Source: Chitinophagales bacterium (lineage in GTDB: Bacteria; Bacteroidota; Bacteroidia; Chitinophagales; UBA2359). From it: a stretch of 52,035 nucleotides of DNA. The stretch lies in the NCBI GenBank assembly GCA_049613665.1, contig JBMZCV010000010.1, positions 1 through 52,035 on the forward strand, written 5' to 3'. Below, in pieces: positions 9,686 to 52,035 of this stretch (positions are counted from its first letter, which is position 1; every line of letters starts with the position of its first letter). Below the pieces are notes generated by a model. That model saw only the letters and a program-made list of their open reading frames with translations, was not told the DNA's origin and did not search any database. The position numbers were made by a program, and so were the translations under genes.

Positions 9686-9705
9686 TTTTTTGTTTTTATA
9701 AATGA

Positions 9706-9885
9706 CAATAGTTCTGACATTTTTTATAACAATTTTCAGTTTCATAAAAAAACTTCTTTTGACAAGTGAAACATACTATTTTCAGTTCAAAAGGCCATTA
9801 AATTTGCAAATATTGGCCACCTTAACCTAAAAAAAATAGTACGTTTAAACTTTTGATAAAAAAATGTATAAATGTCCGAACTGTT
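9706..9885 (-). mobile_element. MITE-like repeat element, copy A, about 180 bp with terminal inverted repeats, inserted between cysO and moeZ.
   Basis: Reverse-complement match to the elements at 12479-12659 and 51959-52035. The termini are CAATAGTTCTGACATTTT at 9706 and AAATGTCCGAACTGTTG at 9869-9885. Confidence 0.75.
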
Positions 9886-9917
9886 GAAATAAGAAGTTAA
9901 AAATTATTTTTTTAATG

Positions 9918-10196
9918 CTAAAAAGAGCCGCCTGCAATAGCTGGCACAATGCTAACAACTGTTTCGTTAGAAATAGCAGTTTCACTACCATCAAGGCTAT
10001 TAATGTCTTCATCGCCAACATAAATGCGGATAAAAGAGCGAATTTGCTGGTTTTTGTCCAAAATATGAGGTGCTAATTTGGGATTTGCTGCTACCAAATC
10101 GGCAATAGCTGTTTGCACATTTTGGCTATCTACATCAAAAGTTGATTGATTGCCTGTAAATTTTCTTAACGGAGTTGGAATGATAATTTTTGCCAT
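9918..10196 (-). CDS. cysO: CysO-like MoaD/ThiS-family sulfur carrier protein with a C-terminal GG-SF extension.
   Basis: 92-aa ORF. IPTPLRKFTGNQ...IRIYVGDEDI...VVSIVPAIAGG resembles CysO/MoaD2. The ORF ends GGSF-stop (stop codon TAG at 9918-9920). Confidence 0.8.
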   Translation of the reverse strand: MAKIIIPTPLRKFTGNQSTFDVDSQNVQTAIADLVAANPKLAPHILDKNQQIRSFIRIYVGDEDINSLDGSETAISNETVVSIVPAIAGGSF

Positions 10197-10247
10197 GATT
10201 TGTATATTTTTTAAGTTAATTTTTAAATGTATTTTTGCTTTTCAAGC

Positions 10248-10664
10248 TTATAAAACGCTTTCTTCATCAAATATTTTCGTTTCTTCATTGAGCCGCCACG
10301 AGCGTAAAATATCGACTTTTCCATTCATAACTGAAATAATGATGTATGAAAAAAACGGCATTGCTTGCTTCAAATCATGCACCGACGGAATGGCGAGATG
10401 ATTTGGATGTGTGTGATAAATGCCCAACAATTCAATTTGATTTGATAATGCGTATTGCTCTGCTTTCATATAGTCGAAAGGCGAAATTTCAAAACGCCTT
10501 CTTTGGTCGCCTTTTTTGCTATTTTTCGCAGGCCGTGCCAACTCGACATATCGTTTTCCGCCTGTTATTTTTCCATACAAAAAACCGCAACATTCGTTCG
10601 GAAAACTCGCTTCGCTTTGCTCAAACATCACTTTCTTTGAATTTTCATTAATGCTTATTTCCAT
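10248..10664 (-). CDS. mec: JAMM/MPN+ metalloprotease (Mec+/QbsD-like) that processes the sulfur carrier protein.
   Basis: 138-aa ORF with the JAMM motif HTHPNHLAIPSVHD (H-x-H-x7-S-x2-D) and an upstream Glu. It lies between cysM and cysO. Confidence 0.85.
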   Translation of the reverse strand: MEISINENSKKVMFEQSEASFPNECCGFLYGKITGGKRYVELARPAKNSKKGDQRRRFEISPFDYMKAEQYALSNQIELLGIYHTHPNHLAIPSVHDLKQAMPFFSYIIISVMNGKVDILRSWRLNEETKIFDEESVL

Positions 10665-10725
10665 TTTAAAATATTTTTTTATCTACAAACGTTTCGCATC
10701 TATGATGCTTTAAAATGTTTCTTTT

Positions 10726-11667
10726 TTACAAAAAAATATGCTTTAATACTTCGCCATATTTCTCTGCATTGTCTGCGAAAATCGTGACAATAGTGCCTTC
10801 TTTTATCTGTTCTGCAACTTGAATCGCACCAACCAAATTTGCGGCTGCCGAAGGACTCAATAAAATACCTTCTGTTTGTGCAACATGTCGAATCATGTCG
10901 TAAGCTTCCATCGTATCGACTTCCAAATTTTGATGTGCAATGCTGCCGTCATAAATTCGAGGCACTTTCGCTGTTTCGAGATGTTTCCAACCTTCCATAC
11001 CGTGCAAAGCCGAATTTGGCTGAAACGAAATCAGTTGAATATTAGGGTTCAACAATTGCAATTTTCGGCTTGTGCCAACAAAAGTTCCTGTTGTGCCGAT
11101 TCCTGTTGCGAAATGCGTAATTTTTTGATTCGTTTGCTCAAAAATTTCTACTGCTGTTGTCTCGAAATGTGCTTTCCAATTGTTTTCGTTAGCATATTGG
11201 TCGGCATAAAAATACTTGTTTGGATAAGCTGCTGCCAACTCTTTAGCTTTTGCTTGCGAGCCATCTGTGCCATCGAAACGAGAAGTATAAATGATTTCTA
11301 CGCCAAGAGCTTTGAGAATTTGCTTGCGTTCTGCCGAAGCATTTTCTGGCAAACACAAACTTACTTTTATGCCCAAAGCCGCTCCGATAGACGCATAAGC
11401 AATGCCTGTATTGCCACTTGTAGCGTCTAAAAGCGTTATGTTTTCATGTATAAATCCTTGATTAACAGCATTTTTTATGATGTTGAAAGCTGGCCGAGCT
11501 TTTACACTTCCACCAAGTTGTTGCCATTCTAGCTTGGCAAAAATTTGTATATTCTTTTTTTGAAAAGCTCTTTTTATTGGAAACAAAGGCGTATTTCCGA
11601 TAAAAGATTGTATGTTTTTGAGTCTTTCAAGAAGTTTTTGGCTGACTTGTCGTTTTACTTGATTCAT
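10726..11667 (-). CDS. cysM: PLP-dependent cysteine synthase of the CysM type (uses a thiocarboxylated carrier and O-phosphoserine/O-acetylserine).
   Basis: 313-aa ORF with the fold-II PLP motifs GGSVKARPAFNII and TSGNTGIAYA. It is the first gene of the cysM-mec-cysO-moeZ block. Confidence 0.85.
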   Translation of the reverse strand: MNQVKRQVSQKLLERLKNIQSFIGNTPLFPIKRAFQKKNIQIFAKLEWQQLGGSVKARPAFNIIKNAVNQGFIHENITLLDATSGNTGIAYASIGAALGIKVSLCLPENASAERKQILKALGVEIIYTSRFDGTDGSQAKAKELAAAYPNKYFYADQYANENNWKAHFETTAVEIFEQTNQKITHFATGIGTTGTFVGTSRKLQLLNPNIQLISFQPNSALHGMEGWKHLETAKVPRIYDGSIAHQNLEVDTMEAYDMIRHVAQTEGILLSPSAAANLVGAIQVAEQIKEGTIVTIFADNAEKYGEVLKHIFL

Positions 11668-11694
11668 TTTATGATAGACGTTTTTTGTATGGCG

Positions 11695-11738
11695 AAAAAA
11701 AAATGCACTTTTTCAACTGAATGAAAAAGTGCATTTTT
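11695..11738 (-). terminator. Attenuator terminator T2, a perfect intrinsic terminator 28 nt upstream of the cysM start codon.
   Basis: On the minus strand the sequence reads AAAAATGCACTTTTTC-attcagtt-GAAAAAGTGCATTTTT followed by nine T. The stem is a perfect 16 bp. Confidence 0.75.
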
Positions 11739-11763
11739 GATAAAAAATATTTTTTACAATAAA

Positions 11764-11847
11764 TTACATAGCTACGCCTTTCCACTTTTGGTGAATGAAA
11801 CAACAACAGCAGCAACAGCAATTGATATGTAAATTTGTAAATAACAT
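11764..11847 (-). CDS. Cysteine leader peptide 1: MLFTNLHINCCCCCCCFIHQKWKGVAM, with seven consecutive Cys codons.
   Basis: Reverse complement of 11764-11847 reads ATG TTA TTT ACA AAT TTA CAT ATC AAT TGC TGT TGC TGC TGT TGT TGT TTC ATT CAC CAA AAG TGG AAA GGC GTA GCT ATG TAA. It lies between terminator T1 and terminator T2. Confidence 0.7.
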   Translation of the reverse strand: MLFTNLHINCCCCCCCFIHQKWKGVAM

Positions 11848-11872
11848 GTTTAGATAATTTTTCAGTAACAAC

Positions 11873-11927
11873 AAAAAATAGAAAAAGCCTTTCTTATGAC
11901 CAAATAGTCTTGTAGAAAGGCTTTTTC
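11873..11927 (-). terminator. Attenuator terminator T1.
   Basis: On the minus strand the sequence reads GAAAAAGCCTTTCT-(20-nt loop)-AGAAAGGCTTTTTC followed by TATTTTTTGT. The stem is a perfect 13 bp. Confidence 0.65.
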
Positions 11928-11968
11928 AAACATTGCAATGTTTATATAATAACACAATCTTTCCACAT

Positions 11969-12022
11969 TTATGGACAATACATAAAACAGCAACAACAAC
12001 AAAATGAATGAATTAATCGCAT
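11969..12022 (-). CDS. Cysteine leader peptide 2: MRLIHSFCCCCCFMYCP, with five consecutive Cys codons plus one more.
   Basis: Reverse complement reads ATG CGA TTA ATT CAT TCA TTT TGT TGT TGT TGC TGT TTT ATG TAT TGT CCA TAA. It lies about 40 nt upstream of terminator T1 on the minus strand. Confidence 0.55.
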   Translation of the reverse strand: MRLIHSFCCCCCFMYCP

Positions 12023-12478
12023 AATGAGAAAGATTGAAATATTCTATATTATTTAATACTAAGCGTTTATTTTTAAACGGACTGCTATAATACGGCGTTT
12101 TTTTTAGAAAAACAAACCTAGAACATCATAAAAGTTACAAAGTGTATCTTTAATCAGTTTTGTGACATAAAATTGACTTTTTGGATTATTTTGCTTTACC
12201 CAAATAAAATAATAGTGTGTTTGTATTTGAATGTTTGCTTTTTATTCGTATTTTGAAAAAAAACAAATATTTTGCTTTTTTACTGAAAATAGTAATAAAA
12301 TAGTGCTTTTTTCCTTTTTATATTTTGACAGTTTTTTCACATTCCTTATTTTACACCATGTTTTCTAAAAAAAGATGTAAATTTATTGTTCAAGACTAAT
12401 TTTTAATTTACGCTGTGTCAAAGGCTATTGAATAATAATGCTATTTGTGCTAACACCTTAAAAAACTTGTTAGTTTAC

Positions 12479-12659
12479 CAATAGTTCGGATATTTATACG
12501 TTTTTTATCAAAGACTTAAACATATTATTTTTTTTAGGCTAAGGTGGCCACTATTTGCAAACTTTATAGCCTTTTGAACTAAAAAATAGTAGGTTTCCCT
12601 TGCCAAAAGGTGTTTTTTTATTCGACTGAAAATTGTTATAAAAAATGTCCGAATCATTG
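12479..12659 (+). mobile_element. MITE-like repeat element, copy B, 181 bp with 17-18-bp terminal inverted repeats.
   Basis: Left terminus CAATAGTTCGGATATTT; right terminus AAAATGTCCGAATCATTG, which is the inverted form. A possible 5-bp target-site duplication, TTTAC, flanks it. An internal GGCTAAGGTGGCCA core is shared with copies A and C. Confidence 0.75.
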
Positions 12660-12748
12660 TTTACATAAACTGTAAAATAAATTTGTCCAAATACTTACTA
12701 AACATAAGTTTATTTTTTAATTTATATTATAAAGTTAAATCTACTTAA

Positions 12749-13429
12749 TTGATGAAATCAAAAATTGTATTAATAACGGTTTTATTTTTCTCGCTATTCA
12801 TGTTTAGCAACTGCTCCAACTCAGCTAGTTGTACTGATGGCATTCAAAACCAAGGCGAAAGAGGGATTGATTGTGGCGACGATGCTGGCTTATGTCCTGC
12901 TTGTTCCGATTGTACCAATGGTATTAAAGATGGTGGAGAAGAAGGCATAGATTGTGGTGGGCCAAATTGCGACCCATGCGAAACAGCAGTAGCGAGCTGC
13001 ACTGATGGCATTCAAAATCAAGGCGAAGAGGGCATAGACTGTGGCGGCCCTTGTACGGCTTGCGACCCTATTATTATAGGTGGCGATGCTGCTATGACAG
13101 CAACCATAGATACGGTAGCATTTGTAGCTACTAGCGTAGTGGCAGTTGTGGTTGAGCCACTTGTGAGCATCACAGGAAATGCTGGCGATATAGGAATTGC
13201 TTTGTCTTATTCTGGCACATTAGAAACAGGTACTTTCGACTTGGCAAGTGCTACGATGACACAAGATGTTATCTCTTGTACATCTACTAGCGGCACGATT
13301 ACATTTTCGAGCGTAGATACCGACAATCAACTTTTATCTGGCTCATTCGAGTTTGATTGCAACGATATTTTGGGTGGTACAGGCGACCATAGCATCACAT
13401 CTGGTACTTTTGAAAATGTAAGTTTCTAA
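12749..13429 (+). CDS. Secreted lipoprotein with three tandem Cys-rich modules (about 25 aa, four Cys each).
   Basis: The signal/lipobox is MFSNC. The repeats are SCTDGIQNQGERGIDCGDDAGLCPAC, SDCTNGIKDGGEEGIDCGGPNCDPC and ASCTDGIQNQGEEGIDCGGPCTAC. A Thr/Ser/Val-rich C-terminal half follows. The modules are also visible as DNA repeats. Confidence 0.65.
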   Translation: MMKSKIVLITVLFFSLFMFSNCSNSASCTDGIQNQGERGIDCGDDAGLCPACSDCTNGIKDGGEEGIDCGGPNCDPCETAVASCTDGIQNQGEEGIDCGGPCTACDPIIIGGDAAMTATIDTVAFVATSVVAVVVEPLVSITGNAGDIGIALSYSGTLETGTFDLASATMTQDVISCTSTSGTITFSSVDTDNQLLSGSFEFDCNDILGGTGDHSITSGTFENVSF

Positions 13430-15072: not shown

Positions 15073-17073
15073 ATGACAGCTACACAAATATTTTATCAAA
15101 ACATTGCCCAAATTAGAGATTTGTTTCATAAATATGGTCGTTTTGATGATGCTAATGCCAAACTAGACGAATTGTCGAAATACTTATGTATTTATGTTTA
15201 TGAAAAACAAAGTCCAAAGTTAGCAAAATATAATATAGCAAGCTTACTTATTGAGTTTGAAAAAAACAATTCTTTTTCACTTGTTTCAAAAATTCAAGAA
15301 TTGTTTCATCAAGTTATACTTATTGATGAATTAAAAGATGCCAATGGACATTCCATATTTAAAAATTCGGCAAAGCTAAATATTGCAGCCGATGACCATC
15401 AGTTTGCTTATGCTTTATTAAAATTAGTTTGCAATGCTGTTGATGGCATTATTGAAGGCGAAAGAAACTTTGATGTTCTCAATGAATGTTTTGGACACTT
15501 TGTGAGAGCTAATTTTAGAAATCACATTGAAGATGCCCAATATATGACTCCCAATGAAGTAGTCGAATTTATTTGCGATATAGCACTTCACGATATAAAT
15601 GTCACAGATGTAGATTTAAAAGAATTTATAGTTTTAGACCCTTGTTGTGGTGTTGGCTCGTTTATTTCTACATTTTATCAAAAAAACTTAACTTCAAAAA
15701 AGGTTAAAAATCTAACAGTCATTGGCCAAGATAAAGTAGAAAGAATGGCCAGATTATCGAAAATAAACCTTTTTCTTGCCAACAATAAAAAGCATATTAT
15801 TTCAAACAACAATTCACTTTCAGGAAAGTCTGCACTTGATAATTTGCATGGAAAAGTTGATTTAATACTAACCAATCCTCCTTTTGGAGCAAAGTTTACG
15901 AGCGATGAATTAAAAGTTGATGCAAAAAAAAATTATCCTCATTTATTTGATATTATAGTAAGAAAAAACAAAACGTTTAACTCAGAAGTCTTATTCGTTG
16001 ATAAATGCCTTTCTTTGCTAAAACCAAATGGTAAATTGTTGGCAGTAGTGCCAGATAGCGTTATTTCCTCTAAGGGCCTTAATGAAATGTTAAGACGTAG
16101 ATTAGCGTATAAAAATAATATTCACATTAAAGCTATTATAGAATTGCCAAATGTCACTTTCGCACAAGCAGGCACACGCACCAAAACAAGTATTCTTTAT
16201 ATTGAGAAAGGAACAAGCAAAATTTCTAATACTTTTATTGCGAAAAGCGAAAGTATTGGTTTTGAAGTTAGTACCAAAAAAGGTGCAACCATAAAACATG
16301 AGCAAGGCGAAAATGATTTGTTAAGTATTTTTAAAGCTTATGTTTCGCAAATGGATTTTAAGAATGGTTTGGATATTCAAAAAGTCATTCAAAAACAGCC
16401 TTCTTGTGTTGCTATTCCTTCCGAATGGTTAAAAGAACAAACATGGACTCCCAACCATTATAAAGCATCAAAATTTACTTCTTTTGATAATATGAAAATT
16501 CCAGCAAAAGAAGTAAACTTTGTAAAGTTGTCAGATATTGCATTTTTCGATACCAAAAAGAGAAAGAAAGAAATTTTGGCCAATGATGCAAAATGTATTA
16601 GCGTACTTCATATAAACGATGAAAATTTAAACTATGAAGATTTTCTAAATTATGCTCCCAAATATATGGGCATTCCTTGTCAAAATGGCGATTTGCTCTT
16701 TTCAAAAATAAACCCTAGAATTGTTAGAATATTTGTTATACCTAATTTACCTTATGCTTTAAGCTGTTCTTCCGAATTTGAAGTACTCAATTCTTCAACC
16801 GAACTGAGCAATTATGCTCTAAAAATGTTGTTATTGTTGCCTGCTGTTCAAATTCAAATTAAAGCTTCTACTTCTGGCACATCGTCTTCTCACAATAGAA
16901 TAAAAACTAACGAATTATCTAATCTTATTATTCCAATGCCCAAAAAAGGTAGCAACTATTATACATCTTTTATTGAAAAAGCAAAAAAATACGAAGAAGA
17001 CAGTATCGCCTACAACAATTTAATTTTTACTATGTATAAAACTAAAATGGAAGTTTTCGACATGGTTGAATAA
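15073..17073 (+). CDS. Gamma-class N6-adenine DNA methyltransferase with its own target-recognition region (Type II-like restriction-modification methylase).
   Basis: 666-aa ORF. Motif X (AQYMTPNEVVEFI), motif I (VLDPCCGVGSFI) and motif IV (LTNPPFGAKF) are present, with a C-terminal region of about 300 aa. The local sequence is A+T-rich. Confidence 0.8.
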   Translation: MTATQIFYQNIAQIRDLFHKYGRFDDANAKLDELSKYLCIYVYEKQSPKLAKYNIASLLIEFEKNNSFSLVSKIQELFHQVILIDELKDANGHSIFKNSAKLNIAADDHQFAYALLKLVCNAVDGIIEGERNFDVLNECFGHFVRANFRNHIEDAQYMTPNEVVEFICDIALHDINVTDVDLKEFIVLDPCCGVGSFISTFYQKNLTSKKVKNLTVIGQDKVERMARLSKINLFLANNKKHIISNNNSLSGKSALDNLHGKVDLILTNPPFGAKFTSDELKVDAKKNYPHLFDIIVRKNKTFNSEVLFVDKCLSLLKPNGKLLAVVPDSVISSKGLNEMLRRRLAYKNNIHIKAIIELPNVTFAQAGTRTKTSILYIEKGTSKISNTFIAKSESIGFEVSTKKGATIKHEQGENDLLSIFKAYVSQMDFKNGLDIQKVIQKQPSCVAIPSEWLKEQTWTPNHYKASKFTSFDNMKIPAKEVNFVKLSDIAFFDTKKRKKEILANDAKCISVLHINDENLNYEDFLNYAPKYMGIPCQNGDLLFSKINPRIVRIFVIPNLPYALSCSSEFEVLNSSTELSNYALKMLLLLPAVQIQIKASTSGTSSSHNRIKTNELSNLIIPMPKKGSNYYTSFIEKAKKYEEDSIAYNNLIFTMYKTKMEVFDMVE

Positions 17074-17076
17074 AAT

Positions 17077-17718
17077 TTAAACTGCCTCCAAACACATTCC
17101 CCTTGTCAAGACACTTTTTTTGAAATATACAATGTCATACGACAATTTATTGCTATTCCAAATAGCTTCTAAAAAAAGCGGATAGTGCAAGTTTCCACAA
17201 CTATTTCTAAATTCATTAGAGTTTTTACCTCTTGGCGGATGCAACTGAAAGTTATTGCTAGTAATAATGCCTTCATCTCTTTTTTTATACCAAACAGCAC
17301 ACATTTTGCGAAAAAAAGGGTCTTTAGGTGGCCGAACAAGCCAAACTCTGCATCTTTCGCTTTTATGTTTAGGTTCATTATCCCACAAAACAAAAATAAG
17401 TTTTGGCATAGTATCTAAATAAGATAAATTACCAGAATATTCGCTTTTTGTACCTGCTTTAATAACGCCATTAAAGCGTGGTGTATCAATTGCTCCCCAT
17501 GTATTAGCACCTTTTACATCTGAGCCATCAAGTAAATCAGGGCCTTTTTTTCGCCCATATCCTTCTATTCCTGTTAGCAAACTAGCTAATATTTGAGACC
17601 AAGCTCTTGTATCAGTTGGCGTAGGCTGTTTTGTTGCTTTTGCATAAGGTTCGACAGCAAAAAATGATTGATGGTGTAAATTAAGAAATGTAAGCACTTC
17701 CCTCAAATCTGTATTCAT
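17077..17718 (-). CDS. Candidate cognate restriction endonuclease of unknown family.
   Basis: 213-aa ORF convergent with the methylase and separated from it by a 3-nt gap. It has no recognisable family; GPDLLDGSDVKG is a weak PD-(D/E)xK-like pattern. The call rests on position. Confidence 0.4.
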   Translation of the reverse strand: MNTDLREVLTFLNLHHQSFFAVEPYAKATKQPTPTDTRAWSQILASLLTGIEGYGRKKGPDLLDGSDVKGANTWGAIDTPRFNGVIKAGTKSEYSGNLSYLDTMPKLIFVLWDNEPKHKSERCRVWLVRPPKDPFFRKMCAVWYKKRDEGIITSNNFQLHPPRGKNSNEFRNSCGNLHYPLFLEAIWNSNKLSYDIVYFKKSVLTRGMCLEAV

Positions 17719-18987: not shown

Positions 18988-19080
18988 GTTAGCACTATTT
19001 AATAAACGGTCGATTCGTTGCTAACGCATTGATGTTCAGCGTGTTAGCTTCAACGAGATGTATATTTATTTTTGTCTGAC
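18988..19080 (+). repeat. Intergenic repeat family R, copy 1 (core AGCACTATTTAATAAACGGTCGATTCGTTGCTAACGCATTGAT...CTTCAACGAGATGT).
   Basis: About 95% identical to the reverse complement of 51168-51266. Related copies lie at 27495, 29085, 30430, 31874, 33441, 45473 and 48052. Confidence 0.75.
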
Positions 19081-19084
19081 TACT

Positions 19085-20314
19085 CTAATACATTTTTTCT
19101 GAATAAGCAGGTTTCAAAGGCAAGCCAAAGTTTTTTGATTTCGCAAAATTCAGCAAAATTTCAAGTTTTGTTTCCTCAACTTCAGGGCAAAAAAGATTGA
19201 GCTTTTTATACAACGCTTGCAAATTGTCGGTATTAAATTTTATTTTCTCCTGAATAAGATAGGGTGTCAAAAAAACACCAACTACATTATGATAAGTGCT
19301 TTCCAAATTATTTAAGTCTTTTGGCATTTTATCAACAAATGAGTAACCTGTAATGTTTAATACCTTAAAAATTTGCTGAACACACCATTCAGTAGGTGTT
19401 TCTTCTTCATTAACCAAGTGAAAATAATCGCCTTCTAGGTTTTGTATGCAGGTTTGATACAATATTTTGGCGGCAAAATCTACGGGAATAATATTTATGC
19501 CCGAATTTAAATCAGCTAAAACACGAAGTTTTACCTCTAGTTCTTCGTCATAAATCGATTCTGTATTATTTTTACAAACCATCGTTTTCCAATGAAGGAA
19601 AAAAGCAGCCCAGCCATAAAAAACATCAAACTTCGGTATTGCTCCTATTTCGTTTTCCAATAGTCTGCCGCTAATCGTAGTTGGTCTAAATATCCGACAG
19701 CGAAGTCCTGTACGGTCTTGATAGGCTTTTACTAATATTTCGGCTTGCAATTTACTTCTTTCATAAGGATTTCTAAATTTTTGGTCTAAATTTACATAAT
19801 CTGGCTGAATTTCGTTGTAAGTAGCTCCACAAACATAAGCCGTACTGACATAATCAAACTCTTTAACATCTAATTTGGAAACTAAATTTAAAAGATTTTC
19901 TGTACCTTTTACATTGATTTGATGCAGTTTTGCAATATTTTCGGCACTATTTTTAAAATTAGAAAAAGCAGCAAGGTGCATAAAATAATGAATTGTTTTT
20001 CCTTTCAATTTATTCAATTCATCATTACTGATTAATTCGTCATTGGTTAGTTCAATATTGACAAAATGAACTTTTGTATCAAAAAACACCTTTAATTCTG
20101 GTAATTTATCGGAACTCGCTGCCAAATAATCAAGCCCGTCATTAAAAAAGATGTCTTTCATACGCTCAGACAAAGTTTGTTGAGCCGATGAGCGTCCCAA
20201 AATAATTAATTCAATACTATCAAGCTGATGCAAGTTATCTTTAACAATTTCAAAAAATACATTTCTACCAAAAAATCCTGTGACTCCTGTTAATGCAAAT
20301 ACTTTATTCGCCAT
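19085..20314 (-). CDS. SDR-type NAD(P)-binding reductase (NAD_binding_4 / thioester or fatty acyl reductase-like).
   Basis: 409-aa ORF with N-terminal ALTGVTGFFGRNV matching the TGxTGFLG motif. Confidence 0.55.
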   Translation of the reverse strand: MANKVFALTGVTGFFGRNVFFEIVKDNLHQLDSIELIILGRSSAQQTLSERMKDIFFNDGLDYLAASSDKLPELKVFFDTKVHFVNIELTNDELISNDELNKLKGKTIHYFMHLAAFSNFKNSAENIAKLHQINVKGTENLLNLVSKLDVKEFDYVSTAYVCGATYNEIQPDYVNLDQKFRNPYERSKLQAEILVKAYQDRTGLRCRIFRPTTISGRLLENEIGAIPKFDVFYGWAAFFLHWKTMVCKNNTESIYDEELEVKLRVLADLNSGINIIPVDFAAKILYQTCIQNLEGDYFHLVNEEETPTEWCVQQIFKVLNITGYSFVDKMPKDLNNLESTYHNVVGVFLTPYLIQEKIKFNTDNLQALYKKLNLFCPEVEETKLEILLNFAKSKNFGLPLKPAYSEKMY

Positions 20315-20746: not shown

Positions 20747-21928
20747 ATGGATTTCGATAGCTGGCAAAAAAAACAAGGCAATACGAATGTTAAAGCAAAA
20801 GAGCAAAAACCAAAAGCAAAGCAAAAGTCGTGGAAACGAGAGTTGTTAGAGTTGGCTATTATTGCATTTATTATCGTTCCGCTCATCAATATTTTCGTGT
20901 TGCAATCTTATGCTATTCCGACTTCTTCTATGGAAAATGAAATGTTGGTAGGCGACAAACTTTTTGTTAGCAAATTTCATTATGGTGCAAGAGTGCCGAT
21001 GACTCCTATTGCATTTCCGTATGTGCACAATACTTTGTTTGGCTCGCCATCTTATACCGAAGCTGTCAAATTGCCATATAAAAGACTGCCTGGCATTGCT
21101 CCTTTGAAGCGAAACAACATCGTGGTATTCAATTATCCAGGCGATGTGAAATATGATATTCCTGTCGATAAGCGAGAAAATTATGTGAAGCGTTGTGTGG
21201 CAGTAGCTGGCGATGAAATTCAAGTGATTGAAGGCGAAGTTTTTATAAATGGCGAAAAAGGCGAAAAGCTGAGAAATCTACAACATGCCTACCAAGTTAT
21301 GACGACAAATGAACCTTTCAATCCGAAAAAAATAAAAGAATTGGGCGTTTCAGAAGTCTATCGTTTTCCGAAACGTGGCAATGAACCTGCTATTCCAATT
21401 TCAAAACTCGGTGGTGTGAAAGCTTCTGCTTATACTTTTATGCTGACCGAAAAAGCAGCAGCAGCTTTAGAAAAAATGAGCAATGTGCAAGTTGTCAAAA
21501 GAATGATACAGCCTGTCGAAGCAGCAGATGTATATATTTTTCCTCGTGACGAGCGTTTTGCGTGGAATGTCGATAATTTTGGCCCTGTTTATTTGCCAAA
21601 AGCTGGCGAAAGTATCAAATTGGACTCTACCAACTTTGCGATTTACGAATATCATATTCGCAACTACGAAGGCGAAAAAGATATTACTTTCAAAAATAAT
21701 CAAGCTTATCTCAACGGAAAAGCCATTGAAAGTTATACTTTTAAACAAAATTACTACTTTATGATGGGCGACAACCGACACAATTCGGCCGACTCTCGCT
21801 ATTGGGGTTTTGTGCCAGAAGACCATATCGTGGGCAAACCAATTTTCGTGTGGCTTTCTACCGAAAAAGATGCCACAGGTTGGTCTGACTGGGTGCGTTG
21901 GGGAAAAAGTATGAGAACTGTTCAATAG
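20747..21928 (+). CDS. lepB: Signal peptidase I, paralog 1.
   Basis: Catalytic Ser motif SSMENEMLVGDKLFVSK and the Lys box [24 protein letters not shown]. Confidence 0.85.
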   Translation: MDFDSWQKKQGNTNVKAKEQKPKAKQKSWKRELLELAIIAFIIVPLINIFVLQSYAIPTSSMENEMLVGDKLFVSKFHYGARVPMTPIAFPYVHNTLFGSPSYTEAVKLPYKRLPGIAPLKRNNIVVFNYPGDVKYDIPVDKRENYVKRCVAVAGDEIQVIEGEVFINGEKGEKLRNLQHAYQVMTTNEPFNPKKIKELGVSEVYRFPKRGNEPAIPISKLGGVKASAYTFMLTEKAAAALEKMSNVQVVKRMIQPVEAADVYIFPRDERFAWNVDNFGPVYLPKAGESIKLDSTNFAIYEYHIRNYEGEKDITFKNNQAYLNGKAIESYTFKQNYYFMMGDNRHNSADSRYWGFVPEDHIVGKPIFVWLSTEKDATGWSDWVRWGKSMRTVQ

Positions 21929-22406
21929 TTTTTAATTTTTAGTGATGAGTTTTTAGTTCAATGGTTCTGACAATTTTTATGACATCATTTTATATAATTG
22001 TTAATTATAACAAGTGTTTTTTTATCAAAAAAACACCATTTTTCAATAAAACCTGTCAAATGGAGTATCGAATTTAAGCATAACAAGAATATTGTTTTTC
22101 GCTCCAAAAAGTGCCAAATAAACTATAAAACAGGTATGAGTTTTCAACTCGTGCTGGTACACTTTTTTGTTGATTTTTTTTAAATATTAAGACTTATTAT
22201 TTTGTCATTTCTTACAAAAAATAGGGCGAATGTTTATAAAAAAACACCATGAAATTCGACAGCCCACCTGTCAGATTTTCCCAAAAAGGGATAAATATCC
22301 GAACCTTTATTAGTTAAAAAAAGAATTAAAAACATTTTTAAAATAACAAAAAAGCTTATAAATTTAACAGAGTTAATTTATAAGCTTTTCTATATATAAT
22401 AATACA

Positions 22407-23639
22407 ATGACAACTCCTTCTGATTCGAGTGTTGAACCTAACGAAAAACCGATTAAAAAGAAGCCAAAACCGCTTTGGCGTGAATGGTTTGATGCCTTGT
22501 TTTTCGCTATTATTGCGGCCACCATCATCCGCACTTTTTTCATTGAAGCCTACACTATTCCGACTTCTTCGATGGAAAAAACTATGCTTGTAGGCGATTA
22601 TCTTTTTGTTAGCAAGCTAAATTATGGTGCAAGAGTGCCAATGACACCGCTTTCGTTTCCTTTCGCACATCATACGATGCCTTTTACGGGTGGCAAATCA
22701 TATAGCGAAGCTTTGAAATTGCCTTATTGGAGACTGCCTGGTTTTCAAGATATAAAACGCAACGATATTATTGTTTTCAATTATCCGATGGAAAGTATGC
22801 GGCCTGTCGATAAGCGAGAAAACTATATCAAACGTTGTGTTGGGTTGCCAAGTGATACGCTACAAATCGTGAATCGGCAGTTGCTCATCAACAACGATAA
22901 ATCGGAAGATATGGGCAATATGCAGTTTAATTATTTTGTGCGAACAAACGGCAATCACATCAATAAAAACGATTTATTTAAGCTAAATATCACAGAAGGT
23001 GGTTTGAACGAAGCCACCGATAGTTTCAATTTGTATAAATATGCTTTGACGCTCGAAAGTCTGGAAAAGATGTCGAAATTTAAGAATGTCGTCAAAATAG
23101 ATACCGTTATGCGTGACAAAGGTATTTATAGCGAAGAGGTGTTTCCGCTTTATCCAAAATTGATGCAAATGGCTCATGCCGAACATCATAATCAAGATAC
23201 GATAACTAAAGTTTCTAAGCAAATTATGAAAAGTTTTGCGTGGAATATCGACAACTTTGGCCCTTTGGTAGTGCCAGCGAAAGGCGACACGGTAGAACTA
23301 AACTTAGAAAATATTTATTTGTATGAACGCATTATTAGGGTGCATGAACACAATGATTTGCAGTTTAACAATGACCAAATACGCATCAATGGCAAGGTGG
23401 CGACTTCTTATGTTTTCAAGATGAATTATTATTTTATGATGGGCGACAACCGACACAATTCGGCGGACTCTCGCTATTGGGGTTTTGTGCCAGAAGACCA
23501 TATCGTGGGCAAAGGCTGGCTAGTGTGGCTCTCGCTAAAACCGATAAATCTCAATCGCAAGGCTGGCTTTTTTAGCAAATATGTGTTTAAAGGGAAAGAA
23601 GTGCGTTGGGATAGGTTTTTTAAGTGGATACATGAGTAA
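22407..23639 (+). CDS. lepB: Signal peptidase I, paralog 2.
   Basis: [17 protein letters not shown] and [24 protein letters not shown]. The second motif is almost nucleotide-identical to paralog 1 over 79 nt. Confidence 0.85.
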
Positions 23640-30429: not shown

Positions 30430-30612
30430 AACAAGGCAATACCTTGATTTTTCAATGCGTGGGCCACTAAACAAATGCTTTATTAAATAGTACTTAACTT
30501 TGAGTAGCACTAACGAATATAGCTAAAAAATAAGTAAGTGCCAAACACTATTTCATAAAGGTCAGTTGATTGCTAACGCATTGATATTGAGTATCTTAGT
30601 TTTCACAACTTG
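30430..30612 (+). repeat. Composite copy of repeat family R: an R core plus a GCAATACCTTGATTTTTCAATGCG sub-motif.
   Basis: AGTGCCAAACACTATTTCATAAAGGTCAGTTGATTGCTAACGCATTGAT at 30537-30585. The upstream sub-motif is also present in the copy at 31874-31951. Confidence 0.6.
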
Positions 30613-30634
30613 TAGTATAAGTCTATTCTACTGC

Positions 30635-33116: not shown

Positions 33117-33440
33117 TAGAATAATTTTGAATAAGAATATTTTTTACTAAAGCTAACATTCTTATTTTGTGTAAAATATATATCATTTCAAACTCTCAAA
33201 CACCTTTTTCTATACTAATATGTCTTTCACTTAACAACATTGTAAGCCTTGTCGTTTGATTTCTTTTCACAAAACTAACGAATATTCAGCCAAAGATAAA
33301 CTAGATAGCTTATATTTAACACTATGACGCATAAAATTACCAATCTATTACAAGAATTAGGCATAAACAAAAAGATATTATAGTTTTAAACTATTGTTTT
33401 TTTATTTTTGCTATACAATTTGTATTTTAGCATCTTTTTA

Positions 33441-33535
33441 AGTGCCAAGCACTAATTAATAAATGGCCAATTTGTGCTAACATTTTGATATTTAGCATGT
33501 TATTTTCAGTCATTTGTCGTTTATTGTTGTCTGAA
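33441..33535 (+). repeat. Copy of repeat family R.
   Basis: AGTGCCAAGCACTAATTAATAAATGGCCAATTTGTGCTAACATTTTGAT. Confidence 0.6.
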
Positions 33536-36206: not shown

Positions 36207-36253
36207 TCATGATACAACTCACCATTACATACTTAATATTTTAAATACAAAAA

Positions 36254-36300
36254 AATAAGGTGGTACACATTTTGAAAATGCCTACCACCTTATTTTGCTA
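36254..36300. terminator. Bidirectional terminator hairpin between convergent genes.
   Basis: Perfect 12-bp stem AATAAGGTGGTA/TACCACCTTATT with a 17-nt loop, followed by a T-rich tract. Confidence 0.55.
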
Positions 36301-36331
36301 TTATTGCCTACTCCTTTTTTTTGAATAGAGG

Positions 36332-38446
36332 CTATTTTATATCTTTTTTGAAACGCACAGGAATAATATATTTCACTTTTACTTTTTTGCCGTTGTGTAC
36401 GCCAGCTTTCCATGCTGGCATTTGCCTCACAAGTCTCATAGCTTCTCGCTCACACCCCATGCTGCTATCCTCAAGGCCTTTATCTATCTGCACATTCGAA
36501 ATAACACCATTTTCATTAATCACACATTTTACATATACAGTTCCTTCAACGCCTTTATCATACGCTTCTTTTGGGTATCTCAAATTGCTAGAAATATAAG
36601 CAAATAAGCCTGTTTGCCCTTCAGGATATTGAGGCATTACATCTGTGATAGTATAGATTTCTGGTGCCAAATTTTCATATTCTATTGGAGCTGACAAATC
36701 ACTATCTGCCAATATTTCATCTTTTTTAATGTCGTTTTCAAAATTTGCAACTTCTTTTTTCGTTTCTTGTTTTGCAACCTTGTCGGCTGTTGCACTATTA
36801 CTTGTCAAAGCTTGTGTTGGTCGGCTTTCAGTATTTTTCGGTGGAGCTGATTTTGTCGTTACCACTTTTTTAGCAGTTACACCTCCTGCATTCATAACCA
36901 TACCTGTTTTTTCGGTCTCGTCAATAATTTTTAGCATTTCAATAGCACGTTTATCATTAGGCAACAAAGCCAAACGACGCTGATAGTTTTGCCGTGCCAA
37001 ATCATACTGCCCCAATTTATAATAAGCTTCTCCCAAGCTTTCATACACAATGTCTTCTTGAGGAAAAAGCCTCTGATTGATTTTTGCGATGGCCAAAGCA
37101 CTTTCCCAATTTTTAGCAAAAGTAAAATCACGAGACAAACCATTTAAAATCCAAACTCTATCTATATCATAATTGCCTTCTTTCACGATGTCGTCAAAAT
37201 TTTCGACCACATAATCCAAGTCTTTTTCCTTAATTATTTCATTCAAAACATACGAAAAAGGATGATGTGGCATATAATAATCAGGGTCAAAGAAAATTTC
37301 GTCTAATTTTTCTGACATTTCGAGAGCTACATCTACATCTATATTTCTATTGCATAAAATAATAATAGTATAGCCTTCTTCTTCGTAGTGTCTAACTTGC
37401 GAACTCAAACCAGATATCAAACCACCTTGATACACAATCCGATTGCCATTTTCTAGTTTCACTTTCCAGCCATAACCATAGCCACTTTCACTTTCAAAAG
37501 ATAAATTTTCTTCCAAAGTATAATTTTTTGTCATAATATCTTTACTTTCCTGTGAAAGCAACTTATTTTTGAAAAAAGCATCAGAAAACCCTACCAAATC
37601 CTCTACCGAACAATACATAGCATCTGCTCCAAAAGGAAATGCTCCTTCAAAATTAGCAAATGTAATCACTTCATCTTCTTTTTTGTCATAGCCTACTGCC
37701 TTGTTTCTGATAATTTCGTTCCAATTATACAAACCTGCATCTTTCGATAAATTACATTTACTCAACACATTTTTTTTAAGATATTTTTGATAACTCTCGC
37801 CAGATTGATTTTCGATTATTTTGGCTAAAAAAACATAATTTGAATTCGATTCATGTATTTTTGAATTAGGCTCAAACATTAATTGTTCTTCCAAAATTAT
37901 TTTTATCAAATCGTCTATTTTGCCTATTCTCAAAAATTTATTATAATATGCTTGTATTTCATAATAGTCTGCAATGCCAGAAGTATGCGTCAGAAGTTGA
38001 TGCACCGTAATTTTTTCGCCAATATTCCCTACTGTTTCAGGCAAGTAAGTAGCAATATTAGCCTTCAAATCAACTTTGCCTTGCTCAACAAGCTGCATGA
38101 GAGCAGTAGCCGTAAATGCTTGCGTAATATAAGCAGTATTAAATTGAGTAGATAACGAAGCCTGAACAGTATAATCCAAATTTGCATAACCAGAAGCATA
38201 TTTATATATTGGCTTGCCATCTTTCACAATCATAGCCACACCATCATATATCCCAAGCCAGCGATAAGCCTTCAACAAACGCTGCATTTTTATAAGACGG
38301 TCTCTTTCGGCATCACTTTGCAAGATTTCATCCAAATCAATAACACTTTTTTCTTTCTCTTTAGCAGATGTTTGCGAAAAAAAAACACTGCCTAAAAGCA
38401 ATATTGTTATGTTTAAAATAAAAAATAGCTTTGTAAAGTTTCGCAT
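36332..38446 (-). CDS. Beta-lactamase-family domain (apparently non-catalytic) fused to TPR repeats and a TonB C-terminal domain.
   Basis: 704-aa ORF with a signal peptide. The beta-lactamase-related region (GVAMIVKDGKPIYK...LLTHTSGI) has FNTAYITQAF in place of the usual SxxK motif. TPR-like repeats follow. The C-terminus (ITDVMPQYPEG...GVEGTVYVKCVINENGVISNVQI...IPVRFKK) matches TonB_C. Confidence 0.6.
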   Translation of the reverse strand: MRNFTKLFFILNITILLLGSVFFSQTSAKEKEKSVIDLDEILQSDAERDRLIKMQRLLKAYRWLGIYDGVAMIVKDGKPIYKYASGYANLDYTVQASLSTQFNTAYITQAFTATALMQLVEQGKVDLKANIATYLPETVGNIGEKITVHQLLTHTSGIADYYEIQAYYNKFLRIGKIDDLIKIILEEQLMFEPNSKIHESNSNYVFLAKIIENQSGESYQKYLKKNVLSKCNLSKDAGLYNWNEIIRNKAVGYDKKEDEVITFANFEGAFPFGADAMYCSVEDLVGFSDAFFKNKLLSQESKDIMTKNYTLEENLSFESESGYGYGWKVKLENGNRIVYQGGLISGLSSQVRHYEEEGYTIIILCNRNIDVDVALEMSEKLDEIFFDPDYYMPHHPFSYVLNEIIKEKDLDYVVENFDDIVKEGNYDIDRVWILNGLSRDFTFAKNWESALAIAKINQRLFPQEDIVYESLGEAYYKLGQYDLARQNYQRRLALLPNDKRAIEMLKIIDETEKTGMVMNAGGVTAKKVVTTKSAPPKNTESRPTQALTSNSATADKVAKQETKKEVANFENDIKKDEILADSDLSAPIEYENLAPEIYTITDVMPQYPEGQTGLFAYISSNLRYPKEAYDKGVEGTVYVKCVINENGVISNVQIDKGLEDSSMGCEREAMRLVRQMPAWKAGVHNGKKVKVKYIIPVRFKKDIK

Positions 38447-45472: not shown

Positions 45473-45575
45473 AGTGCCAAACACTATTTAATAAACAGCC
45501 GATTCGTTGCTAACACATTGATAATCAAAGTATTAGCTTCAACAAGCTCTCATGTTATTTTTATTGTAGGTACTT
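45473..45575 (+). repeat. Copy of repeat family R.
   Basis: AGTGCCAAACACTATTTAATAAACAGCCGATTCGTTGCTAACACATTGAT. The ORF 45437-45652 reads across it and is rejected. Confidence 0.65.
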
Positions 45576-45648: not shown

Positions 45649-47958
45649 ATGATAATTTTAAATATTTTAGCTCCTATCTTAGCTGTTTCAGCAGGTTTCA
45701 TCTTGTTGCTTATGGTCGGAAGCGTCATCTTTTACCTTTCTTTTTACAAGAAAGTTCCTCAAGGCCAAGCCTTAGTACGCACAGGGCGAGGTGGTATTCG
45801 GGTGGCTTTCGACGAAGGTATGTTGGTTATTCCTGTTTTGCATCTTGGCGAAGTGATGGATACTTCACTAAAAAAATTGGAAATTGCTCGTATCGGAAAA
45901 GATGGTTTGATTTGTAACGACAATTTGCGAGCCGACATAAAAGTTGTATTTTTTGTGCGAGTAAATCAGAAAGAAGAAGATGTAAGAAGAGTAGCTCAAT
46001 CTATTGGTTGTACGAGAGCTTCGAGCAATGAGACACTTGTAAATCTGTTTGATGCCAAATTTTCGGAGGCTTTAAAAACGGTAGGTAAGCAGTTCAACTT
46101 TGTTGATTTATACAATTCTCGTGAAAAATTTAAGAACGAAATTTTGAATACTATCGGTCGTGACTTAAACGGCTATATTCTTGATGACTGTGCCATTGAC
46201 TATTTGGAGCAAACACCCTTAGAATATTTGAAGCCAGATAATATTTTAGATGCTCAAGGTATCAAAAAAATTACGGAACTGACTGCAAATGAAAAAATCA
46301 AAGCCAACCTTATTAGAAGAGATGAAGAAAAAACCATTAAGAAGCAAAATGTAGAAGCTCAGGAAGCTATTTTGGAATTGGATAGACAATTGGCAGAAAA
46401 ACAAGCGATTCAACATCGTGAAATTGCAACAATAAAAGCTAGAGAAGAAGCTGAAACCGAAAAAATAACACAAGAAGAACGTTTGAAATCTGAACGAGCG
46501 AGAATAACGACAGAAGAAGAAATGCAAATTGCAGAAGAAAATAAGCAACGACAAGTTATTGTGGCTCAAAAAAATAAGGAACGCACCGAAGTCGTAGAAA
46601 CCGAAAGAGTGGAAAAAGACCGTTCTTTGGAGCAAACAGAGCGTGAAAAAGTAGTGGCTTTGGCAAGTATAGAAAAAGAAAAAGCAGTAGAAGAAGAAAA
46701 GCGAAATATTCAGGAAGTGATAAGAGAGCGTGTTGTTGTGGAACGTGGCGTAGTGGAAGAAGAAGAAAAAATAAAAGATACACGAGCAGTTGCAGAAGCT
46801 GACCGTTCAAAAACTGTGGCTTTGACTGTGGCTTCGCAAAAAGCAGAGGAAATCATGGTGAGAACGGTTAAAGCAGCAGAAGCAGAAAAAGAAGCAGCAA
46901 AAATTGCAGCAGAACGCAAAGTGATTGAAGCTCAAGCCAAGAAAGATGCTGCTGGACGTGAGGCAGATGCAAAAATAATTTTGGCAGAAGCAACCGCAGC
47001 AGAAGAGGCAGCTATCGGAAAGGCAGAGGCTCAAGTGATTGAGGCAAAAGCGGAAGCTGCTGAACGTGAAGGTATGGTAGAAGCAACAATTATGGAGAAA
47101 AAAGCAGTTGTCGAAGCTAAAGCAATTGAGTTAAAAGCAGAAGCAGCGAAAAAACAGGGCTTGGCAAAGGCAGAAGTCATCGCAAAACAAGGCTTGGCAG
47201 AGGCTCAGGTAATCGAACAAAAAGCGATTTCGGAAGCAAAAGGTTTGCAAGAAAAAGGCCTGGCAGAAGCACAAGTCATTGAAAAACAAGGCTTGGCAGA
47301 GGCTCAGGTAATCGAACAAAAAGCGATTTCGGAAGCAAAAGGTTTGGAGCAGAAAGGTTTGGCAGAAGCGATTGCTTACGAGAAACAAGCACTTGCCGAA
47401 GCAAAAGGTATGCAAGAAAAAGGTCTGGCAGATGCAAAAAGTATTGAACTGAAAGCAGAAGCCATGAAAAAATTAAATGGTGTAGGCAGAGAACACGAAG
47501 AATTTAAGTTGCGATTGGAGAAAGACAAAGAAATTGCTCTGGCTCAAATCAATATTCAAAAGCACGTTTCGGAAGCACAAGCGAAAGTGATTGCAGAAGC
47601 TTTGAAATCAACGAAAATTGATATTGTTGGTGGTGAAACGATGTTTTATGACAACATCATTAACTCGGTAATGCGTGGAAAATCTATTGATAGAATGGTT
47701 GATAATAGCAATAGCTTGACTGACCTGAAACAAAATTTATTGGGCGGAGATGGAAATGCAATTGGAAAAGTGCGTGAATTTATCGCTCAATTTGGCTTAG
47801 ATACCAACGATGTCAAAAATCTAACGCTATCAAGTGCCTTGCTCAAGTTTAGTCAATTGACACAAGATGCTGGCACAAAAAATACATTGCAGCAAATGCT
47901 AGAGTCAGTTAAAAATACTGATTTGGCAACGAAAACACTTGAAAGTTTGGGCTTGTAA
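45649..47958 (+). CDS. Flotillin-like SPFH/Band-7 protein with a long Glu/Ala/Lys-rich coiled-coil repeat region.
   Basis: 769-aa ORF with an N-terminal transmembrane segment, an SPFH domain and roughly 33-aa repeats of the form KQGLAEAQVIEQKAISEAKGL. Confidence 0.75.
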   Translation: MIILNILAPILAVSAGFILLLMVGSVIFYLSFYKKVPQGQALVRTGRGGIRVAFDEGMLVIPVLHLGEVMDTSLKKLEIARIGKDGLICNDNLRADIKVVFFVRVNQKEEDVRRVAQSIGCTRASSNETLVNLFDAKFSEALKTVGKQFNFVDLYNSREKFKNEILNTIGRDLNGYILDDCAIDYLEQTPLEYLKPDNILDAQGIKKITELTANEKIKANLIRRDEEKTIKKQNVEAQEAILELDRQLAEKQAIQHREIATIKAREEAETEKITQEERLKSERARITTEEEMQIAEENKQRQVIVAQKNKERTEVVETERVEKDRSLEQTEREKVVALASIEKEKAVEEEKRNIQEVIRERVVVERGVVEEEEKIKDTRAVAEADRSKTVALTVASQKAEEIMVRTVKAAEAEKEAAKIAAERKVIEAQAKKDAAGREADAKIILAEATAAEEAAIGKAEAQVIEAKAEAAEREGMVEATIMEKKAVVEAKAIELKAEAAKKQGLAKAEVIAKQGLAEAQVIEQKAISEAKGLQEKGLAEAQVIEKQGLAEAQVIEQKAISEAKGLEQKGLAEAIAYEKQALAEAKGMQEKGLADAKSIELKAEAMKKLNGVGREHEEFKLRLEKDKEIALAQINIQKHVSEAQAKVIAEALKSTKIDIVGGETMFYDNIINSVMRGKSIDRMVDNSNSLTDLKQNLLGGDGNAIGKVREFIAQFGLDTNDVKNLTLSSALLKFSQLTQDAGTKNTLQQMLESVKNTDLATKTLESLGL
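47188..47346 (+). repeat. Tandem 99-nt repeat inside the flotillin gene, with two 60-nt blocks that are 100% identical.
   Basis: CAAGGCTTGGCAGAGGCTCAGGTAATCGAACAAAAAGCGATTTCGGAAGCAAAAGGTTTG occurs at 47188-47247 and again at 47287-47346. Confidence 0.8.
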
Positions 47959-48051
47959 GAAATATAAAATTTGTCTCTTGGCAATTTTCCAAAACTGATT
48001 TATGCACCTTGTCTGCATCTTGTAAAATAGATGTGGCAAGGTGTTTTTTTA

Positions 48052-48140
48052 GTGCCAAGCACTACTTAATAAACGGCTGATTTGCTGCTAACGCATTAAC
48101 ATATTATTGTATTACCTTCAACGAGATGTTATACTTTGTT
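48052..48140 (+). repeat. Copy of repeat family R.
   Basis: AGTGCCAAGCACTACTTAATAAACGGCTGATTTGCTGCTAACGCATTAAC...CTTCAACGAGATGT. Confidence 0.65.
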
Positions 48141-51104: not shown

Positions 51105-51167
51105 TGATTTTATTTTTTTGGGAAGTGCAAATCTTTTCGTAAAGCTTATATAAATCCTTATTTAAGT

Positions 51168-51266
51168 AGTCAGACAAAAATAAATATACATCTCGTTGGA
51201 GCTAACACGCTGAACATCAATGTGTTAGCAACGAATCGACCGTTTATTAAATAGTGCTTGGCACTT
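51168..51266 (-). repeat. Copy of repeat family R, nearly identical to the copy at 18988-19080.
   Basis: The reverse complement reads AGTGCCAAGCACTATTTAATAAACGGTCGATTCGTTGCTAACACATTGATGTTCAGCGTGTTAGCTCCAACGAGATGTATATTTATTTTTGTCTGAC. Confidence 0.8.
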
Positions 51267-51295: not shown

Positions 51296-51712
51296 CTAGG
51301 CTTCTTCTTTTGTTTCATTATTCTCTGCTTCTGCTGCACTATTTCCTCCTCGCAATTCTTTCATCAATTCTTCCATTTTGATAAAATCTTTTGCTTCTTG
51401 AATAGTAGGAATAAGCGTCAAAACGCTATCTAGCTGCGAAATTTTAACCAAACGTTTCACATTGTCAGTCACTTCTGTAATCACGAGCAAGCCGCCTACA
51501 TTTTGGCACAAACGATTTGCGACCAAAATAGCACTCAAACCAGATGAATCTACAAAACTAACAGCACCTAAATCGAGTATAATATTTTTGACACCTTCAT
51601 TGTTCAAAATTGCCATTGATGTTTTCAAATCTGGTGCAACTAATGTATTAAGTTTTTGTTCCAACACACTCAATACTGTATATGTTTCTTTTTTATCTAA
51701 TGATATTTTCAT
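51296..51712 (-). CDS. STAS-domain anti-sigma-factor antagonist (SpoIIAA-like).
   Basis: 138-aa ORF. ILDLGAVSFVDSSGLSAILVANR is a typical STAS motif with a phosphorylatable Ser. Confidence 0.7.
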   Translation of the reverse strand: MKISLDKKETYTVLSVLEQKLNTLVAPDLKTSMAILNNEGVKNIILDLGAVSFVDSSGLSAILVANRLCQNVGGLLVITEVTDNVKRLVKISQLDSVLTLIPTIQEAKDFIKMEELMKELRGGNSAAEAENNETKEEA

Positions 51713-51958: not shown

Positions 51959-52035
51959 CAATAGTTCGGACATTTATAGTTTTTTTTATCAAAGGTTTAA
52001 ACATACTATTTTTTTTAGGCTAAGGTGGCCAATAT
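51959..52035 (+). mobile_element. MITE-like repeat element, copy C, truncated by the window edge.
   Basis: CAATAGTTCGGACATTTATAGTTTTTTTTATCAAAGGTTTAAACATACTATTTTTTTTAGGCTAAGGTGGCCAATAT matches copies A and B. Confidence 0.7.

Follow-up and report, generated by a model that had tools for sequence, protein, structure and literature searches.

Three short repeats in a contig from an uncultured Chitinophagales lineage, designated here copies A, B and C, very probably form a lineage-specific MITE family, i.e. a family of non-autonomous cut-and-paste DNA transposons. The window, by which we mean the whole stretch of DNA analysed, is a complete 52,035-bp MAG contig that ends inside copy C. A MITE-like nature had been proposed earlier from the letters of this DNA, and our analysis supported it: the elements are small and carry no conserved ORF, they possess TIRs and flanking duplications, their diverged copies sit in unrelated flanks, and copy A is an insertion. 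Weighing against this reading are the number of copies (only three, plus one variant), the non-uniform length of the duplications and the fact that no autonomous partner was found.

Copies, termini and flanking duplications

The three copies of about 180 bp in the original prediction were all recovered at their expected sites, with the end of copy A corrected from 9885 to 9886. The copies and their flanks are as follows.

9706..9886, minus strand: copy A, 181 bp, full length (nhmmer E 4.6e-55)
12479..12659, plus strand: copy B, 181 bp, full length (nhmmer E 7.6e-57)
51959..52035, plus strand: copy C, first 77 nt only, the copy being cut by the contig end (nhmmer E 3.6e-22)
12474..12478, plus strand: left target-site duplication of B, TTTAC
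12660..12664, plus strand: right target-site duplication of B, TTTAC
9887..9892, minus strand: left flank of A, TTATTT in minus-strand reading, a degenerate target-site duplication
9700..9705, minus strand: right flank of A, TCATTT in minus-strand reading

Pairwise identity was 85.2% between A and B (over 182 columns), 91% between A and C, and 89.6% between B and C. In the MAFFT alignment the similarity was sharply bounded by CAAYAGTTCGG... and ...GAAYNATTG, and the flanks beyond these ends were unrelated, so the copies are not segmental duplications. All three, like the longer variant D described below, are intergenic. Because the copies are 85-91% identical, the family is not very young, and it may no longer be active.

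The internal core TAAGGTGGCCAMTATTTGCAAA (22 nt) that the copies had been said to share occurred twice in full in the window, compared with 0.00 occurrences expected from shuffles, and the contig end truncates copy C within this core. The 17-nt terminus CAAYAGTTCGGAYATTT gave 8 matches in the window with three or fewer mismatches (0.72 expected), five of which were ends of copies A, B and C. The terminus pair of the element is CAAYAGTTCGGAYATTT / AAATGTCNGAAYNATTG, and the TIRs of about 17 bp can be extended to about 25 bp. The predicted 17-bp TIRs were present at the copy ends but turned out to be imperfect, matching at 14/17 positions in B and 15/17 in A. In the same way, the quoted consensus was present at termini and core but with small deviations in A, namely CAACAG at the 5' end, TCAGAA at the 3' end and AGGTTAAGG in the core. 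Searching the window and every retrieved locus with an nhmmer profile returned no further copies, only weak matches at the two ends of D.

The 5-bp repeat TTTAC, which had been suggested as a possible duplication around B, was confirmed as a 5/5 match, and the chance of a 5-mer match at that spacing in the window was 0.34%. Target-site duplications were then compared over all copies: the flanks of A agreed at 5/6 positions (a match at least this good has a chance of 0.9%), D showed 6/6, and C ends with the contig. The duplication thus measures 5 bp at B but 6 bp at both A and D, in AT-rich targets.

The sizes of the elements (181 bp, and 351 bp for D) fall within the MITE range of about 50-600 bp, and no conserved coding capacity was found. 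The element had been judged too short to encode a protein; in agreement, B contains a single ORF (49 aa), whose frame is interrupted in A, and a search of the concatenated six-frame translations of A, B and D against 5.8 billion proteins found no called proteins.

An independent Logan contig of the same strain (L017, from SRR27204699) was 100% identical to window positions 9863-12544, and its two ends fell inside A (after 24 nt) and inside B (after 66 nt). Breaks in A, B and C are the pattern that multi-copy repeats produce, although this is not proof of a high copy number. Since MAGs can carry misjoins at repeats and the window ends in copy C, the copies might also be explained as chimeric joins or collapsed repeats introduced during assembly or binning. 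This is extremely improbable, because the Logan assembly reproduced the segment together with the junctions between the partial copies (24 nt of A, 66 nt of B) and their flanks, the 9-15% divergence among the copies marks them as distinct loci, and the gene order around A matches that of three relatives. Three copies and one variant lie in the 52 kb of this single contig. Extrapolation from one copy per ~17 kb would give tens to hundreds of copies per genome.

The sites of copies A and B and the longer element D

Copy A occupies the spacer between thiS and moeB. It runs in the direction of the operon and ends 20 nt before the ATG of moeB (9685). The gene order PALP-JAB-ThiS-MoeB is conserved in relatives, in which the thiS-moeB spacer measures 54 nt (L013, 80% MoeB identity) or 50 nt (L014 and L015, 76%). 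The corresponding spacer of the window consists of 31 + 20 = 51 nt plus the 181-nt element. These spacers were compared by length only, the outgroup spacers being too diverged to align, and the lengths indicate that copy A is an insertion relative to the outgroup genomes. The site is accordingly polymorphic for presence and absence, as judged from the spacer lengths in L013, L014 and L015.

In the closest relative, L012 (93% MoeB identity), two YeeE/YedE-type sulfur-transport genes were found between thiS and moeB (L012 2520-3501, compared with window 9686-9917); these genes are missing from the window and from two outgroups. We considered whether copy A could be a scar left by deletion of these genes, and rejected this, as two outgroups have a bare spacer of 50-54 nt. 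By the same comparison, the YeeE/YedE genes are best regarded as a gain in the lineage of L012 and a separate change. No copy of the element was present in any relative locus examined, including the spacer of L012. An empty site that is clean at the sequence level was not obtained, as L012 carries the two extra genes at the site of A and another relative, L016, has other sequence at the site of D. Extended N-termini in MoeB homologues (P0003 and others) were also considered as a sign of upstream copies and were rejected as unrelated.

Two further matches to CAAYAGTTCGGAYATTT, facing each other at 21959-21975 (plus) and 22293-22309 (minus), revealed a longer relative of the family.

21959..22309, minus strand: element D, 351 bp, each terminus matching the family TIR at 14/17 positions in inverted orientation
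21953..21958, plus strand: target-site duplication of D on one side, TTAGTT (AACTAA in element orientation), chance 0.06%
22310..22315, plus strand: target-site duplication of D on the other side, TTAGTT, a perfect match

Element D shares only about 25 nt per end with A, B and C; its interior is unrelated to theirs and is also fold-back. It lies between tandem lepB paralogues, antisense to both neighbouring genes. These signal peptidase I paralogues (20747-21928 and 22407-23639) contain segments that are 72-91% identical at the DNA level. Upstream of lepB2, L016 (a 93% relative) was 92% identical to the window down to 22318. The homology stopped 2 nt beyond the duplicated TTAGTT of D and gave way to unrelated sequence, a breakpoint that fits the edge of D. 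L016 was therefore rejected as a clean empty site, since the place of D is taken there by other sequence. D would presumably have been mobilised by the same enzyme as A, B and C.

Copy B stands in 1.08 kb of intergenic DNA, 92 nt before a DUF6252 lipoprotein gene (12752-13429), and copy C lies 246 nt upstream of, and divergent from, a STAS-domain gene (51296-51712). The known Bacteroidetes promoter has a -33 TTTG and a -7 TAnnTTTG element spaced by about 19 nt. The terminal TTG of B (12657-12659) stands 18 nt upstream of TAAATTTG, a -7 box at 12678-12685 ahead of the gene at 12752, a spacing that agrees with this consensus, and a similar ..AATATTTGCAAA.. string occurs upstream of lepB2 in L016. 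The insertion of B may thus have rebuilt the -33 element of the downstream gene's promoter. As an account of the whole family, the idea that the element carries or creates promoters, its 3' end (..CATTG) or its core (..CCAATATTTGCAAA) supplying promoter parts to the downstream gene, is very unlikely. The case at B is single and a TTG trinucleotide is weak evidence, no -7 box follows the 3' end of A, and the agreement of the core with TAnnTTTG is only 7/8 positions (A and C) or 6/8 (B).

The intergenic gap around B (11668-12748) is unusually long for a non-coding region and lies upstream of the PALP gene. It contains a CAG-rich tract (~11795-11830), a fragment of a second repeat family, R, and copy B, and synteny with L012 ends exactly at this gap. 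The R fragment had been noticed directly to the left of B, where it was found again.

12412..12478, plus strand: R fragment (left boundary approximate), a separate repeat family and not part of the MITE, with B inserted at its 3' edge

Besides this fragment, R copies occur at 18991-19090, 30525-30614, 33434-33518, 45473-45562 and 48051-48130 on the plus strand and at 51159-51265 on the minus strand. The family is about 80-100 nt long with a conserved hairpin, GTGCCAAGCACTATTTAATAAACGG...TGCTAACAC..GTGTTAGC. Five of the seven are oriented toward a gene that starts ~60-100 nt downstream; for the fragment beside B the gene start is ~270 nt downstream, with B in between. In this respect the R family resembles a shared leader or promoter module more than it does a transposon.

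Several other features of the window were recorded. The ends of Logan contig L001 fall within an R copy and a coding tandem repeat. Within the ORF at 45649-47958 (769 aa, no Pfam match), positions 46900-47460 are periodic, with a repeat unit of 33 nt (11 aa) that is rich in A/E/K/Q, and this is where a Logan contig ends. A hairpin repeat at 36252-36336, GGTGGTACACATTTTGAAAATGCCTACCACC plus TTATTTTGC, separates convergent genes. A second occurrence, 83.5% identical, was seen in the 93% relative at a site that is not orthologous (L016 37-115); the repeat may be a dispersed, terminator-like palindromic element. At the left contig end (47-113), a long near-perfect hairpin, GGTGTTATCACCAACAAC...GTTGTTGGTGATAACACC, lies downstream of a fatty-acid oxidation gene (319-2772). 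The region 15073-17718 encodes, in convergent orientation, an N6-adenine DNA methylase (Eco57I-like) and a MamI-family restriction endonuclease, which together probably make up a type II R-M system.

Palindromic structure and a possible role in RNA

The whole 181-bp unit is an imperfect palindrome centred on TTTGCAAA. Its left arm (about 75-80 nt) pairs with the right arm over about 61-63 Watson-Crick columns; the right arm measures about 100 nt, of which some 25 nt are extra. The RNA-structure prediction that had been proposed as a check was carried out, and the sense strands of A and B were each predicted to form one long hairpin. For A, the predicted energy of the sense strand was -43.4 kcal/mol (z -4.55) versus -34.7 for the antisense strand; for B, it was -40.6 kcal/mol (z -3.76) versus -31.1 (z -1.76).

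The markedly better folding of the sense strand would be expected if the element were a structured cis-acting RNA of the ERIC/Correia type, spread perhaps as a MITE and retained for a hairpin that modulates the processing, stability, termination or translation of an adjacent mRNA such as thiS/moeB. In the arms of the sense strand, mismatches are G.U more often than A.C (5:1 in A, 4:1 in B), a bias that is not significant, as there are only two full copies and these are non-independent. Of the differences between A and B at positions predicted to be paired, eleven preserve the pair as a wobble and one is compensatory. Both A and B are oriented toward the start of the downstream gene, and A is necessarily co-transcribed if thiS-moeB is still an operon; D, on the other hand, is antisense to both of its neighbours. 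Rfam gave 0 matches at gathering score in the window, the best E value around B (0.94) being far below gathering. There is no tRNA in the element and no conserved Bacteroidetes -7 box (TAnnTTTG) within it, and an intrinsic-terminator scan was empty in both A and B. The same spacer in relatives is without the element, which is therefore not an ancestral regulator. Taken together, we consider a structured RNA an unlikely primary explanation. It is also unlikely that the sense transcript is a 181-nt hairpin used by the host as a portable module for mRNA processing or expression, with its orientation selected relative to the downstream gene. If that were true, the hairpin module could uncouple moeB from thiS in a CysO-type sulfur-carrier operon. 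A secondary RNA-level role for sense-transcribed copies of the MITE is a slight possibility, the main candidate being copy A, which lies in an operon 20 nt before moeB.

Distribution, comparison with known elements and proposed mechanism

To define the distribution of the family, public collections were scanned with exact patterns, which would miss diverged relatives. Neither the core nor the TIR pair (130-160-nt gap) had a match in 185,579 species-representative genomes (GTDB). The core scan of JGI metagenomes gave 10 matches, all of them chance matches in coding sequence or tRNA ends that shared ~20-40 nt. The exact TIR-pair scan of viral contigs (130-160-nt gap) gave 0 matches, blastn against plasmids and phages gave no match, and a text search of the literature for the TIR string retrieved one irrelevant match only. 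The neighbouring genes lepB1, lepB2, the STAS gene and the DUF6252 gene were likewise not on record in the public assemblies looked up. From these scans, the family appears confined to one lineage. Within the window, a Pfam scan detected no transposase domain in the 36 large ORFs, the context being ordinary housekeeping genes, and a TIR scan detected no second terminus pair enclosing an autonomous IS.

ERIC/IRU elements of Enterobacteriaceae and Vibrio are 127-bp imperfect palindromes that are intergenic and non-coding, often lie in transcribed operon spacers, include longer variants and have no known transposase. The present element is likewise an intergenic, non-coding palindrome over its whole length, with a longer variant and a strand-dependent RNA fold. 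It differs in having no sequence similarity to them, a length of 181 bp, clear duplications of 5-6 bp and a host in the Bacteroidota (Chitinophagales). In form, its nearest counterparts are elements that are palindromic over their whole length, such as ERIC, but it has clear target duplications.

Correia/NEMIS elements of Neisseria and RUP of Streptococcus pneumoniae are MITEs of ~100-160 bp with TIRs and target duplications that lie beside genes, where they are known to affect transcription as well as the processing of mRNA. The TIRs of Correia elements measure 26 bp, and RUP has a link to IS630-Spn1; in both cases the target duplication is TA. The present element resembles both as a short MITE with TIRs and target duplications inserted beside genes, whereas its duplications are 5-6 bp long, its termini are different and it has no known partner IS. 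A REP/BIME is a 20-40-bp palindrome with a GTAG/CGTC tag, and a PATE of the IS200/IS605 type has a sub-terminal hairpin without TIRs or target duplication. Both assignments were rejected, because the present unit is 181 bp long with TIRs and flanking duplications.

Within the phylum, MITEs have been described in Porphyromonas gingivalis, including BrickBuilt (PMC4596501; MITEs also noted in PMC2575886), where they cause assembly breaks and rearrangements (PMC5771137). Compared by description only, they belong to the same class of non-autonomous element as the family described here. Bacterial MITEs in general are well known, including in Bacteroidota (PMC4596501, PMC2575886, PMC5771137, bioRxiv 10.1101/2024.01.18.576219). 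The earlier description of the family as novel therefore holds in a narrow sense, i.e. it is lineage-specific and has no copy in the public collections scanned, but it belongs to a known kind of bacterial MITE.

We propose that the termini of about 17 bp (CAAYAGTTCGGAYATTT) would serve as binding and cleavage sites for a DDE-type transposase that is encoded elsewhere in the genome and acts on the element in trans. Such an enzyme would make cuts staggered by 5-6 bp at AT-rich intergenic targets, and fill-in of the gaps after integration would leave the flanking direct repeats. Both transposition in trans and the DDE type of the enzyme are what we infer from the form of the element, and the same applies to current activity and genome-wide abundance.

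The family neither opens nor settles a long-standing question. It accounts for the fragmentation of the MAG and of the independent same-strain assemblies at these points, and its copies indicate where the genome of an uncultured Chitinophagales lineage has recently changed. It could also serve as a strain-typing marker. Its partner transposase, if found, would add one more IS-MITE pair in a phylum in which few have been described.
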